Source of the DNA: a virus | Taxonomy: Duplodnaviria > Heunggongvirae > Uroviricota > Caudoviricetes | DNA: 12,535 bases | Virus record (IMG/VR): IMGVR_UViG_2563366903_000018 | Reading direction: 5' to 3' (one strand) | Part shown: positions 1 to 9,915 of the stretch, one piece after another | How the letters are laid out: every line of letters begins with the position of its first letter | Position numbering within the stretch: the first letter of the stretch is position 1 | The notes under the pieces: model-generated | The model's input: only the letters and a program-made list of their open reading frames with translations | Told to the model about the DNA's origin: nothing | Database searches by the model: none | Position numbers and translations under genes: made by a program

Positions 1-567
1 ATGCTTATTGGCTATGTACGCGTGTCAACAAATGACCAGAACACCGATTTGCAACGTAATGCACTGAACTGCGCGGGATGTGAGCAGATTTTTGAGGACA
101 AAATCAGTGGCACTAAGTCCGACAGACCGGGGCTGAAAAAACTACTCAGGACACTATCGGCAGGAGACACGCTGGTTGTCTGGAAGCTGGACAGGTTGGG
201 GCGCAGTATGCGGCATCTTGTTACGCTGATAGAAGAGTTGCGCCAGCGTGGTGTGAATTTCAGAAGCCTGACTGACAGTATTGATACCAGTACCCCAATG
301 GGCCGTTTCTTTTTTCATGTCATGGGTGCCCTGGCTGAAATGGAACGCGAACTGATAGTTGAACGTACCAGGGCAGGGCTGGCTGCAGCTCGTGCCAAAG
401 GCAGAGTAGGTGGACGCCGTCCTAAGTTGACCACCGAACAGTGGGCACAGATTGGGCGTTTACTCGAGGCCGGAGAATCAATACAGCGTATTGCACTGAT
501 TTTTGATGTAGGCGTTTCTACCATTTATAGAAAATTTCCGGCAAATAAGATCAATGAATCCCCCTGA
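1..567 (+). CDS. Serine DNA invertase (Gin/Pin/Hin family site-specific recombinase)
   Basis: 188-aa ORF starting at window position 1. N-terminus MLIGYVRVSTNDQNTDLQ matches the catalytic-serine motif of small serine invertases, with a C-terminal helix-turn-helix region; remembered similarity to phage Mu Gin along most of its length. Sits where P2-like phages carry the region next to tail fibre genes. Confidence 0.9.
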   Translation: MLIGYVRVSTNDQNTDLQRNALNCAGCEQIFEDKISGTKSDRPGLKKLLRTLSAGDTLVVWKLDRLGRSMRHLVTLIEELRQRGVNFRSLTDSIDTSTPMGRFFFHVMGALAEMERELIVERTRAGLAAARAKGRVGGRRPKLTTEQWAQIGRLLEAGESIQRIALIFDVGVSTIYRKFPANKINESP

Positions 568-2461: not shown

Positions 2462-2764
2462 ATGAGCGATAAGCAGACTGAAAAGACCATTCAACTGGAT
2501 ACCCCCATCAAGCGCGGTAAAACAGAAATCACCGAAATTGTGCTGCGTAAACCGCAGTCCGGTGCGCTGCGCGGTACACGCCTGCAGGCCATTATGGATA
2601 TGGATGTAAACGCGATGATGACCGTGATCCCCCGCATCTCCAGTCCGGCACTGACTGCACAGGAAATTGCAGAGATGGACCCGGCAGATCTCACTGCCAT
2701 GTCGGTTGAGGTTGTCACTTTTTTGTTGAAGAAGTCGGTGCTTGCCGGTTTACCGACAGCCTGA
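2462..2764 (+). CDS. E: Tail assembly chaperone gpE (zero-frame product)
   Basis: 100-aa ORF between the tail tube and tape measure genes; contains the slippery heptamer near its 3' end, as in P2 gene E. Confidence 0.8.
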   Translation: MSDKQTEKTIQLDTPIKRGKTEITEIVLRKPQSGALRGTRLQAIMDMDVNAMMTVIPRISSPALTAQEIAEMDPADLTAMSVEVVTFLLKKSVLAGLPTA

Positions 2765-2898
2765 CGGTTGACGATCTGGTGGCAGATATCGCCACCATTT
2801 TTCACTGGCCGCCATCCGTTACTGACGTTATGCCGCTGACCGAAGTGCTGGAATGGCGGTATAAAGCGATTCAGAGAAGCGGGGCCAACGATGAGTGA
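2462..2898 (+). CDS. E+E': gpE+E' frameshift fusion protein (E frame 2462..2725, then -1 frame re-reading 2725 through stop at 2896..2898)
   Basis: Manual translation of the -1 frame from 2725 gives VEEVGACRFTDSLTVDDLVADIATIFHWPPSVTDVMPLTEVLEWRYKAIQRSGANDE, ending at TGA 2896..2898, which overlaps the T start codon at 2891. This is the conserved G/GT-like chaperone frameshift arrangement known for P2 E/E'. Confidence 0.65.
2719..2725 (+). promoter_or_regulatory. Programmed -1 ribosomal frameshift slippery site T_TTT_TTG (E to E')
   Basis: Heptamer TTTTTTG lies in the zero frame of E as T TTT TTG (codons Phe-Leu at 2720..2725). The -1 frame is open from here to a stop at 2896..2898. Confidence 0.7.
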
Positions 2899-3204
2899 TA
2901 ACAACCTGCGTCTGCAGGTCATTCTTAATGCGGTTGACAAGCTCACCCGCCCATTTCGATCTGCGCAGGCCAGTTCAAGAGAACTGGCTGCTGCTGTCAA
3001 AAAATCCCGCGATGCAATAAAGCAGCTTGATCAGGCCGGGAGCAGTCTGGACAGCTTCCGAAAGCTGCAGGCAGAAAATCAGAAATTAGGCGACAGGCTG
3101 AACTATGCCCGCCAGCGTGCAAATTTGCTCAGTCAGGAACTGGGAGCGATGGGGCCGCCTTCGCAACGTCAGGTTGTTGCTCTGGGCCGTCAACGGCTGG
3201 CTGT
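2891..3204 (+). CDS. T: Tail tape measure protein gpT, exon 1 (5' part; predicted 5' splice site after 3204)
   Basis: ORF starts MSDNNLRLQVILNAVDKL directly after E'. The reading frame runs into a stop at 3224..3226 only 7 codons after a GTGTG motif at 3205. The tape measure frame resumes about 1.8 kb downstream in the same frame. Confidence 0.55.
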
Positions 3205-3715
3205 GTGTGTCACGAAGGAGAACTGATAGCGGCAATATGAAAATTGCAGCATAAGTTATCCATGCTCTGAGGTGGGTGGAGGTGGGCCCTCCGGTCAGGG
3301 TTTGCAGGAACACTGACCAAACGACCCGGTGCTGCTTCATTCTAAGGAATGTAGTGGTGAGCGACTCGGGAAAAGGCAGAGATCTACTGTCACGTGGGGT
3401 TCGGGAAGCTGAACGAAAGTAAACTGTCCGATGAAGCATCGAAATCTTAGATGATGTCAAAATGGGGCCGTACAGCCGTCCTCTGATAAGCGCAGAAGAC
3501 ACCTGCTTACTGACTGCGCGGCATCCGGTGTTAAGGCAGCAGGATCCCGGGCCAGACCATCTCAGGGAACGTGAGAACCTGTTTCCGGCACGTATCGGGA
3601 AACAGGGGCGGACCCATTCGTAGTAGTGATGAAAGATCTGTAATGGGTCTGGAGCGAAGGGATGGGGATCACATTCATTGCAAAAGACACAACCCATAAG
3701 GGGATGATGTAACTG

Positions 3716-4948
3716 ATGCAACGAAAATCATTCGAAATACCAAAAGCACTGGTCTGGGCATCATATCTGGATGTGCGTCGCAACAAGGGAGCCCCCGGAT
3801 GCGACGGACAGACTTTGAAAATGTTCGACCAGCAACGTGATGGCAATCTATACAAGATCTGGAACCGGCTATGTTCGGGAACATGGTTTCCGCCACCTGT
3901 GCTGGAAAAACGGATCCCGAAGCCGAATGGCAAGGAGCGCATTCTGGGGATCCCAACAGTATCCGATCGAATTGCTCAGGGAGCGATAAAACTTTTTATG
4001 GAAGAAAAGCTTGACCCGATTTTCCATGCTGATTCTTATGGTTACCGACCAGGCAAATCAGCTCATGACGCTCTGAAACAATGTGCCATCCGGTGCTGGC
4101 GTTATAGCTGGATACTGGAAGTGGACATCAGTGCGTTTTTCGACCATGTGAGACATGATCTGGTGCTCAAAGCACTGGAACACCACGGGATGCCTAAATG
4201 GGTCATCCTGTACTGTCGACGCTGGATGGAAGCACCAATGCAGAGTTGTGAAAATGGAGAATTAATAACCCGAACACGAGGCACTCCGCAGGGCGGGGTC
4301 ATTAGTCCGCTACTTGCTAACTTGTTCCTTCACTATGCATTTGATTTGTGGATGGAAAGAGAATATCGGGGGGTACCGTTTGAGAGGTACGCTGATGATA
4401 TTGTAGTACATTGTTCACGAATGAGTGATGCAACAAGGCTGAAGAACAGGTTATCGGAGCGCTTCTCGGAAGTCGGGCTGGTCCTGAATGCAGGGAAAAC
4501 GAATATCGCCTACATTGACACGTTTAAAAGGAGAAACGTCGCAACGAGTTTCACCTTTCTCGGATATGACTTCAAAGTGCGTACGCTGAAGAATTTCAAA
4601 GGCGAACTGTACCGAAAATGCATGCCGGGTGCGTCAAATGCAGCAATGCGCAAAATAACAGAAACAATCAAGAAGTGGCGTATACATCGCTCAACAGCTG
4701 AGAGTTTGCTGGATTTTGCGAGGCGCTACAATGCGATAGTGAGAGGCTGGATCGAGTACTACGGAAAGTTCTGGTCCAGAAATTTCAACTATCGACTGTG
4801 GAGTGCAATGCAGTCACGTCTGCTCAAGTGGATGCAGTCTAAATACAGACTTTCGAACCGGAGGGCTCAGCGAAAGCTGACGCTGGTAAGGAAGGAGTAT
4901 CCGAAGCTATTTGTCCACTGGTATTTACTACGTGCATCGAATGAGTGA
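3716..4948 (+). CDS. Group II intron-encoded reverse transcriptase/maturase (En-minus type)
   Basis: 410-aa ORF with RT motifs: IPKPNGKERILGIPTVSDR (RT1/2), YGYRPGKSAHDAL, LEVDISAFFDHVRHD (RT3), GTPQGGVISPLLANLFLH (RT4), YADDIVV (RT5 catalytic), FLGYDF (RT7), and maturase domain X RGWIEYYG. No Cys/His-rich HNH endonuclease region after domain X. RBS-like aagggga about 11 nt upstream of the ATG. Confidence 0.9.
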   Translation: MQRKSFEIPKALVWASYLDVRRNKGAPGCDGQTLKMFDQQRDGNLYKIWNRLCSGTWFPPPVLEKRIPKPNGKERILGIPTVSDRIAQGAIKLFMEEKLDPIFHADSYGYRPGKSAHDALKQCAIRCWRYSWILEVDISAFFDHVRHDLVLKALEHHGMPKWVILYCRRWMEAPMQSCENGELITRTRGTPQGGVISPLLANLFLHYAFDLWMEREYRGVPFERYADDIVVHCSRMSDATRLKNRLSERFSEVGLVLNAGKTNIAYIDTFKRRNVATSFTFLGYDFKVRTLKNFKGELYRKCMPGASNAAMRKITETIKKWRIHRSTAESLLDFARRYNAIVRGWIEYYGKFWSRNFNYRLWSAMQSRLLKWMQSKYRLSNRRAQRKLTLVRKEYPKLFVHWYLLRASNE

Positions 4949-4952
4949 TCAA

Positions 4953-5028
4953 GAGCCGTATGACGCGAGAGTGTCACGTACGGTTCCGTGAGCAGCCGGG
5001 GAGTGAAATTCTCTCCGGCTGACTCGAC
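4953..5028 (+). ncRNA. Group II intron ribozyme domains V and VI (catalytic hairpin plus branch-point hairpin)
   Basis: Domain V GAGCCGUAUGACGCGAGAGUGUCACGUACGGUUC (4953..4986): 10-bp lower stem, AGC catalytic triad at 4954..4956, 2-nt CA bulge on the 3' strand, 4-bp upper stem, GAGA (GNRA) tetraloop. Domain VI: 11-bp stem 4993..5003 with 5011..5021, bulged A at 5022, short basal helix, intron ending ...GAC at 5028. Confidence 0.75.
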
Positions 5029-7792
5029 TCAGCGCCTGGAAGAACGCCAGAAAAAGCTGCAGCAGCAGACGGCGCTTGTGCGTGCTGAACTGTACCGGGC
5101 GGGAATTTCTGCGAAAGACGATGCGGGAGCAACTGCCCGTTTAGCCCGTGAAACATCACGTTATAACCAGGAACTTTCGAAACAGGAGGCGCGGCTGAAG
5201 CGACTGGGGGAAGCTCAGCGCAGGATGAATGCAGCGCGTGCCAGTTATGCCCGTTCGCTGGAGGTGCGTGATCGTATTGCAGGTGCCGGAGCCACCACCA
5301 CGGCTGCAGGGCTGGCAATGGGTGCGCCAGTGATGGCGGCAGTAAAAAGCTATACCAGCATGGAAGATGCCATGAAAGGTGTGGCAAAGCAGGTCAATGG
5401 TCTGCGTGACGATAATGGCAACCGCACTGCACGTTTTTATGAAATGCAGGATGCCATCAAGGCTGCCAGCGAACAGTTGCCGATGGAAAACGGTGCGGTG
5501 GACTTCGCTGCACTGGTTGAAGGTGGTGCGCGCATGAACGTCGCAAACCCTGACGACAGCTGGGAAGATCAGAAACGTGACCTGCTGGCCTTCGCCAGTA
5601 CGGCAGCAAAGGCGGCAACAGCCTTTGAGCTGCCAGCGGATGAACTGTCAGAAAGTCTGGGGAAAATCGCCCAGCTCTACAAAATCCCCACCCGCAATAT
5701 TGAACAGCTCGGTGATGCGCTGAACTATCTGGATGATAACGCCATGTCGAAAGGGGCAGACATCATTGATGTGATGCAACGTCTGGGCGGTGTGGCTGAC
5801 CGTCTGGATTATCGTAAAGCGGCGGCGCTGGGTTCCACCTTCCTGACACTGGGCGCTGCGCCAGAGGTTGCAGCCAGTGCAGCAAACGCGATGGTGCGTG
5901 AATTGTCCATTGCCACCATGCAAAGCAAGAGTTTCTTTGAAGGGATGAATCTGCTGAAACTCAATCCTGAAGTGATTGAAAAGCAGATGACGAAGGATGC
6001 GATGGGAACCATCCAGCGCGTGCTGGAGAAGGTAAACGCGCTGCCGCAGGACAAGCGCCTGTCTGCCATGACTATGTTGTTTGGTAAAGAGTTTGGCGAT
6101 GACGCGGCGAAACTGGCAAACAACCTGCCGGAACTGCAGCGTCAGTTAAAACTGACAGCGGGCAATGATGCGCTTGGCTCCATGCAGAAAGAATCCGACA
6201 TTAACAAGGATTCACTTTCTGCGCAGTGGTTGCTGGTCAAAACCGGAGCGCAGAACACCTTCAGCAGCCTGGGCGAAACGCTGCGCCAGCCGCTGATGGA
6301 TATTCTGTACACGGTGAAAAGCGTCACGGGGGCGTTGCGTCGCTGGGTGGAAGCTAACCCGGAACTGACAGGCACACTGATGAAAGCATCGGCTGTTGTG
6401 GCTGCGGTTACCGTCGGCCTCGGCACCTTAGCGGTGGCGCTGGCTGCAGTGCTGGGGCCGCTGGCAGTGATCCGTCTGGGATTCTCTGTGTTGGGTATCA
6501 AAACGTTATCTTCCGTTACGGCAGCAGTAACTCGAACCAGCAGCGCGTTGTCCTGGCTGGCTGGCGCACCACTGGCACTGCTGCGACGCGGGCTTGCTTC
6601 ATCGGGCAACGCCGCAGGTTTACTTACTGCGCCGTTGTCGTCTTTGCGCCGCACGGCATCACTGACGGGAAATGTCCTGAAAACTGTAGCAGGTGCGCCG
6701 GTTGCACTTTTGCGGTCTGGATTATCCGGTTTACGTGCTGTTGCTGTGATGTTTATGAATCCTCTGGCGGTACTGCGCGGTGGACTGGCCGCCGCAGGCA
6801 CGGTGCTGCGAGTACTGGCATCTGGTCCACTGGCGATGCTGCGCGTTGCCCTGTATGCCATATCTGGTCTGTTAGGTGCTCTGCTCAGTCCGATAGGTCT
6901 TGTGGTTACTGCACTGGCGGGCGTGGCGCTGGTTGTCTGGAAATACTGGCAACCCATCACCGCATTTCTCGGTGGCGTGGTGGAAGGATTCAAAGCGGCG
7001 GCAGGTCCCATCAGTGCAGCGTTCGAACCGCTTAAGCCCGTGTTCCAGTGGATTGGCGACAAAGTGCAGGCGCTGTGGGGCTGGTTTACTGATCTGCTGA
7101 CGCCCGTTAAGTCGACCTCTGCCGAACTGCAGAGCGCAGCGGCAATGGGGCGGCGATTCGGGGAGGCACTGGCGGAAGGGCTGAATATGGTCATGCATCC
7201 GCTGGACTCCCTGAAATCCGGAGTTTCCTGGTTGCTGGAGAAGCTCGGCATTGTCAGTAAAGAGGCCGCAAAGGCAAAACTGCCGGAAAGCGTGACGCGT
7301 CAGCAACCTGCGACGGTGAATGCAGACGGTAAAGTGATGATGCCATCGGGTGGTTTTCCATCATGGGGATATGGCTTTGCGGGGATGTATGACAGCGGCG
7401 GGTATATCCCGCGCGGGCAGTTTGGCATCGTCGGTGAAAACGGGCCGGAAATTGTTAACGGCCCGGCAAATGTGACCAGCCGGAGAAATACAGCTGCACT
7501 GGCTGCCGTTGTTGCCGGAATGATGGGCGTTGCTGCCGCGCCAGCAGAGCTTCCACCGTTGCACCCCTTGGCACTTCCCGCGAAAGGTGGAGAAGCAATT
7601 GTGAGTCGCGCAGCCACTGTGCCGCTCGTTCAACGGATTGAGGCACCGACGCAGATCATCATTCAGACGCAGCCAGGACAAAGTGCGCAGGATATTGCGC
7701 GGGAGGTGGCACGCCAACTTGATGAACGTGAACGCAGGCTGAAGGCAAAAGCCAGGAGTAACTACAGCGATCAGGGGGGATACGACGCATGA
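5029..7792 (+). CDS. T: Tail tape measure protein gpT, exon 2 (predicted 3' splice site before 5029; stop at 7790..7792)
   Basis: 934-codon open frame (the ORF track starts it at an internal GTG at 4988, inside the intron). Ala/Gly/Leu-rich with a repeat-bearing central region and a C-terminal region typical of tape measure proteins. Same frame as exon 1; predicted junction codon gt|t gives ...ALGRQRLAV-QRLEERQKKLQQQ.... Stop overlaps the U start (ATGA). Confidence 0.6.
6566..6940 (+). repeat. Tandem degenerate repeats of about 20-22 aa within the tape measure protein (PLAxLRxGL-type units)
   Basis: The translation shows consecutive units: APLALLRRGLASSGNAAGLLT / APLSSLRRTASLTGNVLKTVAG / APVALLRSGLSGLRAVAVMFMN / PLAVLRGGLAAAGTVLRVLASG / PLAMLRVALYAISGLLGALLS / PIGLVVTALAGVALVV. 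Confidence 0.6.
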
Positions 7793-8274
7793 TGATGGTG
7801 CTGGGATTGTACGTGTTTATGCTGCGCACCGTTCCGTATCAGGAACTGCAGTATCAACGCAGCTGGCGACATGCGGCAAACAGTCGGGTAAACCGACGTC
7901 CGTCCACGCAGTTTCTGGGACCGGAAAACGACATGCTGACGCTTTCCGGTGTTCTTATGCCGGAGATAACAGGCGGCAGGCTGTCGTTGCTGGCACTGGA
8001 GCAGATGGCAGAACAGGGGAAAGCATGGCCCCTGATTGAAGGCAGTGGCACGATTTACGGTATGTATGTGATTGAGGGACTGAATCAGACTAAAACGGAG
8101 TTTTTCCGCGATGGTATGCCGCGCCGGATTGAGTTTACCCTGTCGCTCAAACGGGTGGATGAATCCCTGTCCGATATGTTCGGTGATCTCAGTGCGCAGC
8201 TGAATAATTTGCAGGATACGGCAACGTCTGCCTTAAGCGATATCAGTAAAACGGTGGGAGGGCTGCTGTCGTGA
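7789..8274 (+). CDS. U: Tail protein gpU homolog
   Basis: 161-aa ORF whose start overlaps the T stop (ATGA); size and position match P2 gpU (about 159 aa). Confidence 0.85.
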   Translation: MMMVLGLYVFMLRTVPYQELQYQRSWRHAANSRVNRRPSTQFLGPENDMLTLSGVLMPEITGGRLSLLALEQMAEQGKAWPLIEGSGTIYGMYVIEGLNQTKTEFFRDGMPRRIEFTLSLKRVDESLSDMFGDLSAQLNNLQDTATSALSDISKTVGGLLS

Positions 8275-9371
8275 ATTTCAGCTCTGAACTGCTTAACAAA
8301 GGCAACAAAACTCCGGCATTCAGCATCAGTATTGAAGGCAGGGATATCACTACTGTGCTGGACAACCGCCTGATGGGGCTTACGCTGACGGATAACCGGG
8401 GCTTTGAAGCGGACCAGCTTGATCTGGAGCTGGACGACGCCGATGGAAAAATCGTGCTGCCGCGCCGTGGTGCGGTCATTACGCTGGCGCTGGGCTGGAA
8501 GGGGCAGCCGCTTTTCCCGAAAGGGGCATTCACGGTGGACGAGATTGAACACACTGGCGCACCGGACCGCCTGACTATCCGGGCGCGAAGTGCTGATTTT
8601 CGTGAAACACTGAATACCCGCCGTGAAAAGTCGTGGCACAAGACCACCGTTGGGGAAGTGGTGAAGGAAATAGCTGCGCGGCACAAACTGAAGATGGCAT
8701 TGGGTAAAGACCTGTCAGATAAACCCGTGGAACATATAGATCAGACCAATGAGAGTGACGGCAGTTTTCTGATGCGGCTGGCGCGCCAGTACGGTGCTAT
8801 TGCGTCGGTGAAAAATGGCAATCTGTTATTCATCCGACAGGGGCAGGGTAAAAGCGCCAGTGGTAAACCACTACCGGTTATCACTATCACACGTAAGGAC
8901 GGCGACAGTCACCGCTTTACCCTGGCAGATCGCGGAGCTTACACGGGCGTAATTGCCAGCTGGTTGCATACCCGCGAACCCGCGAAGAAAGAAAGCACCG
9001 CGGTGAAGCGTAAGCGCAGGACTAAGAAGCAGAAGAAAGAGCCGGAAACGAAGCAGGGCGATTATCTGGTGGGTACGGATGAAAACGTGCTGGTACTTAA
9101 TCGCACCTATGCTAATCGGAGTAACGCCGAACGGGCAGCGAAAATGCAGTGGGAACGCCTGCAACGCGGCGTTGCGTCATTCTCGCTACAACTGGCGGAA
9201 GGGCGGGCAGATCTCTACACGGAAATGCCAGTGAAAGTCAGTGGCTTTAAACAGCCGATAGATGATGCGGAATGGACCATTACGACTCTGACGCATACCG
9301 TCAGCCCCGATAACGGTTTTACAACCAGTCTGGAGCTTGAAGTGAGGATTGATGATTTCGAAATGGAATGA
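8271..9371 (+). CDS. D: Tail protein gpD homolog (late control gene D product)
   Basis: 366-aa ORF with a GTG start overlapping the U stop (GTGA); position before ogr and length match P2 gpD (about 387 aa). Confidence 0.85.
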   Translation: MNFSSELLNKGNKTPAFSISIEGRDITTVLDNRLMGLTLTDNRGFEADQLDLELDDADGKIVLPRRGAVITLALGWKGQPLFPKGAFTVDEIEHTGAPDRLTIRARSADFRETLNTRREKSWHKTTVGEVVKEIAARHKLKMALGKDLSDKPVEHIDQTNESDGSFLMRLARQYGAIASVKNGNLLFIRQGQGKSASGKPLPVITITRKDGDSHRFTLADRGAYTGVIASWLHTREPAKKESTAVKRKRRTKKQKKEPETKQGDYLVGTDENVLVLNRTYANRSNAERAAKMQWERLQRGVASFSLQLAEGRADLYTEMPVKVSGFKQPIDDAEWTITTLTHTVSPDNGFTTSLELEVRIDDFEME

Positions 9372-9427: not shown

Positions 9428-9461
9428 TGTGAATTTAGCAAAAATGGGGAGAACTCGAAAA

Positions 9462-9680
9462 ATGATGATTTGCCCACTGTGTGGAAGTGCCGCCCATACT
9501 CGCAGCAGTTTTCAGGTATCTTCATTGACCAAAGAGCGTTACAACCAGTGCCAGAACATTAACTGCAGCCATACTTTTGTTACCCATGAAACTTTTGTTC
9601 GTTCGATTGCAACGCCAAAAGAGTCAAATCCGGTTCAGCCACATCCAATGAAATCAGGACAGGTGGCGCTCTCTCTTTGA
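9462..9680 (+). CDS. ogr: Late gene transcriptional activator Ogr (zinc-finger protein)
   Basis: The ORF track starts it at 9429, but the ATG at 9462 has the better RBS and gives a 72-aa protein MMICPLCGSAAHTRSS...YNQCQNINCSHTF with the CxxC...CxxxxC zinc-binding pattern and the length of P2 Ogr. It is the last phage gene before host DNA, as expected for the right end of a P2 prophage. Confidence 0.85.
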   Translation: MMICPLCGSAAHTRSSFQVSSLTKERYNQCQNINCSHTFVTHETFVRSIATPKESNPVQPHPMKSGQVALSL

Positions 9681-9750: not shown

Positions 9751-9793
9751 TTCAGGCAACAAAAAACCCATCAACCTTGAACCGAAATGGCGG
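9751..9793 (-). terminator. Rho-independent terminator for ybjL (minus strand)
   Basis: Perfect 10-bp inverted repeat CCCATCAACC (9757..9766) / GGTTGATGGG (9784..9793) with a 17-nt loop. On the minus strand it is followed by a U-tract (plus-strand AAAAAA at 9751..9756). It lies about 120-165 nt downstream of the ybjL stop. Confidence 0.6.
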
Positions 9794-9915
9794 GGTTGAT
9801 GGGCTCCACAAAATGGGGACATCAAAGAAAAGCAGTGGCACTAATTAAGACTGATGCCCTGCGGAAAAGTTCTGCGGTTGTGCAAAAAAATTTCATTTTC
9901 AGGGCAACTTCAGTT

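Follow-up and report, generated by a model that had tools for sequence, protein, structure and literature searches.

Our results strongly support a model whereby an intact copy of the group II intron E.c.I3 was inserted, most likely from a home in an IS66-type element, into the tape-measure gene of a P2-like prophage. By analogy, this intron, an endonuclease-lacking (En-minus) member of class D, would move in the manner described for its relative RmInt1. The ORF at 3716-4948 within the intron encodes a group II reverse transcriptase (RT)/maturase without an endonuclease domain, confirming what a preliminary description of this DNA had proposed. By its sequence, the element is E.c.I3, a class D intron that is already known and that is En-minus by the nature of its class.

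A complete group II intron in a prophage tape-measure gene

The stretch of DNA analysed here (the window, 12,535 nt) is 100% identical to contig KE136876.1 of assembly GCA_000408105.1 and, as its ORF list and a comparison with CFT073 indicate, covers the end of a P2-like prophage with the tail genes and then runs into host DNA. Genes for a Hin-type invertase (1-567), the tail sheath (710-1882), the tail tube (1892-2407), gpE (2462-2764) and E' (2779-2898) lead up to the 5' exon of the tape-measure gene, a homologue of the P2-type gpT gene (2891-3204, + strand); the 3' exon (5029-7792, + strand), which encodes a PhageMin_Tail domain, is followed by the genes for gpU (7789-8274) and gpD (8271-9371), by an Ogr-like zinc-finger gene (9429-9680) and by host rybB (9758-9836, - strand), together with host ybjL, ybjM and grxA. 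The prophage adjoins rybB/ybjL, and the tape-measure gene of CFT073 lies at the same chromosomal locus.

Between the two exons lies a complete group II intron of 1,824 nt (3205-5028, + strand), class D and type IIB3, which starts with GUGUG, ends with GAC and corresponds to E.c.I3 (= Sh.dy.I1). Joining 2891-3204 to 5029-7792 creates a single open frame of 1,025 codons, and this frame is lost when the junction is moved by two bases. In a search with 600 nt of joined exon sequence, CFT073, E2348/69 and many further genomes had uninterrupted, colinear tape-measure genes of 100% identity (362 records reach at least 99%), the tape-measure gene of CFT073 has exactly the length of the joined exons (3,078 nt), and Escherichia phage 500465-1 also carries an uninterrupted tape-measure sequence that matches them colinearly at 100%. 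Because excision restores the uninterrupted gene exactly, the limits of the intron are 3205 and 5028.

The ribozyme parts flank the ORF on both sides. Upstream of it, a domain I segment (3278-3394, + strand) matches the Rfam model group-II-D1D4-2 (RF01999; 93.4 bits, E 1.9e-18), and downstream of it, domains V and VI (4951-5028, + strand) match RF00029 with 57.1 bits. Within the latter match, domain V is a 34-nt hairpin (4953-4986, + strand; fold z = -6.4) with the AGC triad at 4954-4956, while domain VI (4989-5026, + strand), supported by both the Rfam match and the fold, has a bulged branch-point A at 5022, 7 nt from the 3' splice site. The sequence and structural features by which a mobile group II intron is recognized were found, namely the conserved ends, exact excision, the ribozyme domains, and an RT and maturase ORF located in domain IV.

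The intron-encoded protein

The intron-encoded protein (IEP) has 410 residues (3716-4948, + strand), with ATG 3716 as the first start because an in-frame TAA is found at 3710-3712. In a Pfam search of the protein, RVT_1 was matched at residues 67-285 (nt 3914-4570; E 2.4e-41), including the YADD motif at nt 4388-4399, and the GIIM (maturase/X) profile was matched at residues 311-385 (nt 4646-4870; E 1.5e-14), while no HNH or other nuclease profile was matched at E<=1, the only additional match being a weak one to Intron_maturas2. In NCBIfam, the protein scored 394.7 bits against TIGR04416 (group_II_RT_mat; cut-off 300), aligning over positions 2-352 of the 353 in the profile. The profile search that the preliminary description had suggested for RT, maturase and HNH domains therefore revealed no HNH domain, and neither did it place the protein among the retron RTs; the domain assignments are not attributable to chance.

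That the protein might be a retron or defence-associated RT carried by the prophage is suggested by scores of 77 bits against Drt3a (cut-off 200) and 66 bits against the retron St85 RT (cut-off 235), and by the annotation as 'retron-type' of some of the related RTs, which occur in 42 of 50,697 phage records. However, the scores of all retron and DRT models in the NCBIfam search were far below their own cut-offs, whereas that of TIGR04416 was well above; moreover, the protein has a GIIM domain, the ORF lies between ribozyme domains, and excision of the intron restores the host gene exactly. We consider this reading refuted.

The absence of an endonuclease domain is also evident from the C-terminus. 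The motif RGWIEYYG occupies residues 343-350 and is followed by 60 residues, somewhat fewer than the approximately 70 counted in the preliminary description, which was correct in characterizing this tail as basic and devoid of Cys-His motifs: the tail contains 15 K/R, two acidic residues, one His and no Cys. Consistently, the closest solved structure in a PDB search is that of the En-minus GsI-IIC RT (PDB 6AR1; E 2e-44, residues 20-388), while the En+ T.el4h protein (562 aa) aligns only over its own residues 81-409, and the long C-terminal regions of T.el4h and LtrA (599 aa) have no counterpart in the 410-aa protein. The stop codon lies 4 nt ahead of the domain V helix and 2 nt ahead of the Rfam domain V-VI match. 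Because it nearly abuts domain V, there is no room in the ORF for a further domain or coding sequence.

In every inspected RefSeq copy with an uninterrupted ORF, RefSeq/PGAP labels the identical ORF as a pseudogene that is 'incomplete; missing N-terminus'. We think that this label is an annotation artefact, since the alignment to RmInt1-family proteins begins at residue 4 of the ORF and that to TIGR04416 at position 2 of the profile. The exact 410-aa protein is indexed in 1,519 sample blocks.

Relation to E.c.I3 and other group II introns

The intron matches the E. coli ED1a copy without a mismatch and a plasmid copy at 100% identity, and shares 98.0% identity with the strain 536 copy. ED1a and 536 are among the reported carriers of E.c.I3, the target of which is IS679, and fragments of E.c.I3 have been reported on Shigella virulence plasmids (Leclercq and Cordaux, PMC3522654). 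With Sh.dy.I1 from plasmid pSD1_197 (NC_007607), an intron that has been placed in class D (Toro and Martinez-Abarca, PMC3552965, Table S1), the intron at 3205-5028 shares 98.4% identity across 1,788 nt. E.c.I3 and Sh.dy.I1 are the same element, with the same 410-aa IEP carrying five to six substitutions in the Shigella copies. These identities lie above the species threshold of at least 95% nucleotide identity for E.c.I3. The present copy differs in location only, residing in a phage tape-measure gene rather than in the IS679/IS66 tnpC site of an IS66-family transposase gene, a difference that concerns the location and not the element itself.

Pairwise identity and bit scores, rather than a tree, also group the IEP with class D: it is 46% identical end to end (residues 4-405; 381 bits) to a 419-aa RmInt1-family IEP from S. 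meliloti pSymA, versus 155 bits for the best solved RT from outside class D, and its length lies in the usual range of full-length class D proteins (401-420 aa; PMC3552965). In the tail, LTLVRKEYPKLFVHW (residues 388-402, nt 4877-4921) agrees with seven of the eight specified positions of the class D C-terminal motif LX3AX3PXLF[V/A]HW (quoted in PMC4615759), the A position being R. The preliminary description had listed D among the En-minus bacterial classes, and class D is where the similarity to Sh.dy.I1 and the tail motif place the intron. A S. meliloti RmInt1-family intron matches the Rfam D1D4-2 model as well. The pSymA loci used for comparison (L004 and L014) were initially taken as RmInt1 itself, an assignment that we rejected; because neither their flanks nor their EBS1 agree with the published GAUGAGA site, they are referred to as RmInt1-family only. 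At L004, the intron interrupts another RT gene within its YADD motif.

E.c.I3 shares with RmInt1 (Sr.me.I1), RmInt2 and Sr.md.I1 an RT-X protein of ~410-419 aa without a D/En region, the class D motif and the D1D4-2 match, and it has the same IIB-type layout of EBS1, EBS2 and EBS3 at homologous positions as the Sinorhizobium class D introns. Sr.md.I1 likewise resides in an IS66 transposase gene. Moreover, KLDPIF in the 410-aa protein sits at the place of the beta-clamp-binding LDSLFL of RmInt1, which is a resemblance only. E.c.I3 differs from the RmInt1 family in its protein (~46% identity), its EBS sequences and its targets.

The RT and X domains are homologous to those of the Ll.LtrB (LtrA) and T.el4h proteins, but these have their own C-terminal DNA-binding and HNH endonuclease region, in the place of which the 410-aa protein has no Cys/His motif. 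In such En+ introns, a cut in the bottom strand primes cDNA synthesis. The En-minus GsI-IIC RT of class C, similarly to the 410-aa protein, consists of RT and X only; however, GsI-IIC has a IIC ribozyme, while the intron at 3205-5028 has IIB features and sits within coding sequence. Class C introns insert after transcription terminators.

Taken by itself, the short C-terminus might suggest that an endonuclease domain was lost from this copy by a recent C-terminal truncation. We find this extremely improbable, as the stop codon lies only 4 nt before the domain V helix, class D relatives share both the position of the C-terminus and the tail motif, and the copies in Shigella, ED1a, 536 and plasmids have a length of 410 aa throughout.

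Target recognition and the insertion site

The usual site of the intron, as defined by 17 other copies, is in tnpC of IS66 elements and reads GGCCGGAA[A/G]AAC TGG[C/T/A]T[G/C]T, also written AA[A/G]AACTGG[C/T/A]T[G/C]T, followed across the insertion point by TC; its codons specify GRKNWLF, a motif of the transposase. In the tape-measure gene, the site is GGCCGTCAACGGC TGGCTGT, followed by TC, and its reading frame differs from that of the tnpC site. Only positions -8 to +2 are common to the two sites (CTGGCTGT followed by TC; 10 bases), comprising the eight bases of C(-8) and IBS1 (3197-3204, + strand; IBS1 TGGCTGT at 3198-3204), which are identical to the IS66 tnpC homing site, and the +1/+2 bases TC of the 3' exon.

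EBS1 of the intron (ACAGCCG, 3472-3478, + strand), which has the same alignment position as the EBS1 sequences that in two S. meliloti introns complement their own 5' exons, pairs with IBS1 through six Watson-Crick pairs and one G-U pair. The IIB-type feature of 3' exon recognition via EBS3 is present: EBS3 (A at 3533, + strand), in the coordination loop, pairs with U+1 of the 3' exon (IBS3, T at 5029), and EBS3 covaries with the exon +1 base across three introns (G:C in L014, A:U in L004 and A:U here). A putative EBS2 (UCUU, 3445-3448, + strand) is suggested in the loop AAAUCUUAGA (3442-3451), which aligns with the exon-complementary EBS2 loops of two class D introns from S. meliloti. Pairing of this EBS2 is complete only with AAGA at -13 to -10 of the ED1a-type IS66 site (the AAGAAC variant), and covers three of four positions both with the AAAAA-type IS66 sites and with the tape-measure site; a UUUUU EBS2 that would fit the AAAAA of most IS66 sites was sought in the intron and not found. 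At the tape-measure site, IBS1 and IBS3 are perfect and IBS2 is no worse than in most natural sites. Because a 5-Mb genome should contain a handful of matches of 10 nt, the tape-measure insertion, judged from these alignments, is at a chance near-cognate (ectopic) site.

Distribution of the intron and probable recent movement

The intron occurs frequently in E. coli and Shigella: among 5,426 complete E. coli genomes, 167 contain it (173 records, mostly plasmids), and it also matches 271 plasmid records. It usually resides in tnpC of IS66-family elements, carried by plasmids and genomic islands: all of the 17 other copies inspected lie in sequence of the IS66 tnpC type, 16 of them with IS66 or tnpC genes called and one (L026) with matching flanking sequence only, and most of the chromosomal copies represent one and the same island locus. 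The insertion in the tape-measure gene is absent from all genomes of the 5,426-genome set, and the intron at 3205-5028 was found in 0 of the 50,697 phage records.

Contig KE136876.1 contains three copies that agree at all 1,824 nt: two lie in IS66 elements, at 2.34 and 3.05 Mb, and the third is the one in the tape-measure gene, at 3.56 Mb. Because three copies without a mismatch occupy three sites on one contig, the comparison points to recent movement of the intron within the source lineage. Translation of the unspliced message would stop six codons into the intron, giving a 111-aa product (2891-3226), and this junction product, which ends in LAVCVTKEN, is indexed in 149 sample blocks of a larger assembly collection. 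The junction was found once on a prophage backbone with 13 scattered differences in 2.6 kb, and the history of the insertion may therefore be older or recurrent rather than consist of one recent event. In an exact look-up, the 934-aa downstream ORF matched the source contig alone, because other assemblies break at the repeated intron.

These data also bear on whether the present copy is a dead relic with a pseudogene for an IEP that neither splices nor moves any more. Some copies elsewhere have decayed: at L011 and L012, an 11-nt deletion leaves an ORF of 236 aa, and the Shigella plasmid copies lack the first 36 nt while keeping the 410-aa frame. Together with the PGAP flag of a missing N-terminus on identical ORFs, such copies would fit a relic. 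However, the ORF examined here is uninterrupted, has a length within the class D range, retains YADD and matches TIGR04416 as well as RmInt1-family IEPs along its full length; the ribozyme has the GUGUG start, the domain V AGC and the bulged A of domain VI; and three identical copies are present at three sites in one genome, with the protein itself being indexed in more than a thousand sample blocks. We therefore regard a dead relic as very unlikely.

A model for insertion at the replication fork

RmInt1, RmInt2 and Sr.md.I1 retrohome without target cleavage and with a bias for the lagging-strand template, and in the RmInt1 group nascent lagging strands are the probable primers and the protein binds DnaN (PMC5010178, PMC4615759, PMC6698660). 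This fork-dependent lagging-strand pathway, including DnaN binding, has been demonstrated for RmInt1 and would apply to E.c.I3 by homology. In our model of E.c.I3 movement, which follows RmInt1 and its relatives, the IEP would aid splicing of the intron RNA and remain bound to the lariat, and the resulting particle would find its DNA site mainly via RNA-DNA pairing (EBS1-IBS1, EBS2-IBS2 and EBS3-IBS3). The intron RNA would then reverse splice into the transiently single-stranded lagging-strand template at a replication fork where, because the protein cannot cut the opposite strand, the end of the nascent lagging strand would serve as the primer. The normal target would be the GRKNWLF codons in tnpC of IS66-family elements, and the tape-measure gene would have been hit as an ectopic 10-base look-alike. 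The most probable donor is either of the two identical copies that the same chromosome carries in IS66 elements, and insertion would have occurred during passive replication of the prophage with the host chromosome.

The predicted insertion strand would agree with this model. By synteny, the window is in the same orientation as in K-12 and CFT073, where this locus lies at ~0.9 Mb in the clockwise replichore, so that the + strand, which is the sense strand of both the tape-measure gene and the intron, is predicted to be the lagging-strand template. The other two copies on KE136876.1 are probably co-oriented, as judged by synteny and not from a mapped origin, an agreement that for n=3 is expected in 1 of 4 cases by chance. 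GC skew is positive in the prophage parts and slightly negative in the 2.8-kb host part, but these parts are too short and too gene-biased for skew to serve as a check of the strand. The phage origin and gene A are both absent from the window.

The preliminary description had linked mobility of the intron to a phage that replicates after induction or infection. Accordingly, the intron could have been inserted during phage replication, with its mobility being tuned to this replication. The intron is in the sense orientation in the late operon without a promoter-like site of its own, and the tape-measure copy would therefore be expressed mainly during lytic growth, the phase of phage DNA replication; also, the presence of the junction peptide in the 149 sample blocks, once with the 13 differences, would fit spread or recurrent insertion among related phages. 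On the other hand, the intron is absent from the 50,697 phage records, of which only 42 have any related RT, all other copies examined are in IS66 tnpC-type sequence, two identical donors were already present in the same chromosome, and the insertion strand already fits replication of the host chromosome. Because the insertion strand would be the host lagging-strand template, phage replication need not be invoked, and we consider this origin unlikely. Overall, the interpretation given in the preliminary description is partly supported, its link to phage replication not being favoured by our data.

Consequences for the prophage

No sigma-70-like promoter was found within the intron upstream of the ORF, and the tape-measure copy of the intron is therefore probably expressed together with the late operon. 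A phage tail needs few tape-measure molecules. It could be envisioned that splicing from the late transcript keeps the tape-measure gene working, that assembly of a viable phage tail depends on the intron, and that the phage carries E.c.I3 between strains, with the intron being expressed as phage DNA replicates and homing into intron-less tape-measure alleles of related prophages; we deem this scenario quite improbable. Compatible with it are the occurrence of the junction in many sample blocks, once on the diverged backbone, and the perfect EBS1-IBS1 match. Exon ligation by RmInt1 in vivo is poor (0.07%; quoted in PMC3123198), and by analogy the prophage with the interrupted tape-measure gene is most likely tail-defective.

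Lack of an endonuclease in the RT/maturase defines class D, is well studied and in itself adds little new biology; some novelty resides only in the consequence for the prophage tape-measure gene. The pseudogene label that RefSeq attaches to the ORF in many genomes hides potentially active copies of E.c.I3. A 10-nt look-alike of the homing site lets an intron that dwells in IS elements enter an essential phage tail gene and probably cripples the prophage. The tape-measure copy of E.c.I3 may therefore provide a natural test of whether splicing by a class D intron suffices to spare its host gene.

Intron copies in the source genome and in other replicons

The source-assembly contig KE136876.1 carries three copies of the intron, at 2.34, 3.05 and 3.56 Mb, with no mismatches across 1,824 nt; two of them reside in IS66 tnpC, and the third occupies the tape-measure gene (5' exon, window 2891-3204; intron, 3205-5028, + strand). 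The tape-measure/intron junction of the window recurs in L020, a human gut metagenome contig, but the prophage backbone there differs by 13 substitutions, which are scattered across the 2.6 kb from the invertase to gpE. From window position 2622 to 3323, where the alignment of this contig ends, the two sequences have no substitutions, a stretch that takes in the 5' exon together with 119 nt at the start of the intron. L020 could represent an older insertion, a recombination event, or the same site struck independently. A second metagenome contig (NODE_3275) has the 5' exon of the tape-measure gene and then the intron, but downstream of the intron plasmid genes (PilI, relaxase, NikA-like) take the place of the 3' exon, an arrangement that reflects either an assembly chimera via the repeated intron or genuine recombination between intron copies.

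On Shigella virulence plasmids, the intron copies begin at intron position 37 (L005, L006 and most Shigella pINV matches), and unrelated sequence stands in place of the first 36 nt, GUGUG included. Because of this replacement, these 5'-truncated copies are unable to splice despite an unbroken frame for the intron-encoded protein (IEP). In S. meliloti pSymA (L004, about 700-2574), an RmInt1-family class D intron splits the YADD-coding motif of a second RT gene (RYADD|FVMG) and is therefore nested in an RT gene.

Features of the prophage

An Ogr-like gene (window 9429-9680) ends 78 nt from the RybB sRNA gene (window 9758-9836, - strand; Rfam, 105 bits), and the right end of the prophage therefore adjoins the 3' end of rybB. 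CFT073 has an identical arrangement. This layout suggests that rybB is the attachment site for the P2-like phage group to which the window prophage belongs.

The Hin-type invertase (window 1-567) adjoins a tail-fibre/fibre-assembly segment in related loci (L015, 4671-7029; L017-L021, upstream of the invertase). This segment is found in both opposite orientations among assemblies; the fibre encoded by one form is 465 aa long and carries Gp53-like_C, and that of the other form is 514 aa long and carries Collar. A run of N at the segment in the NCBI scaffold suggests that invertase and fibre segment make up a host-range switch that is actively inverting.

The interval separating gpE from the E' frame contains a G+C-rich hairpin with a T run after it (TGGTGGCAGATATCGCCACCATTTTT; window 2777-2797, + strand), near the place where P2-type phages produce the E+E' frameshift product. 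This hairpin may serve to stimulate frameshifting and not as a terminator.

Annotation of the IEP

In RefSeq records of intron copies identical or near-identical to that of the window (L001-L003, L008-L010, L013), PGAP treats the intact gene for the 410-aa IEP (window 3716-4948, + strand) as a pseudogene that begins at codon 31 and is 'incomplete; missing N-terminus'. On the strand opposite to domain I, it places a frameshifted 'hypothetical protein'. This treatment is probably an annotation artefact, one that conceals potentially active introns.
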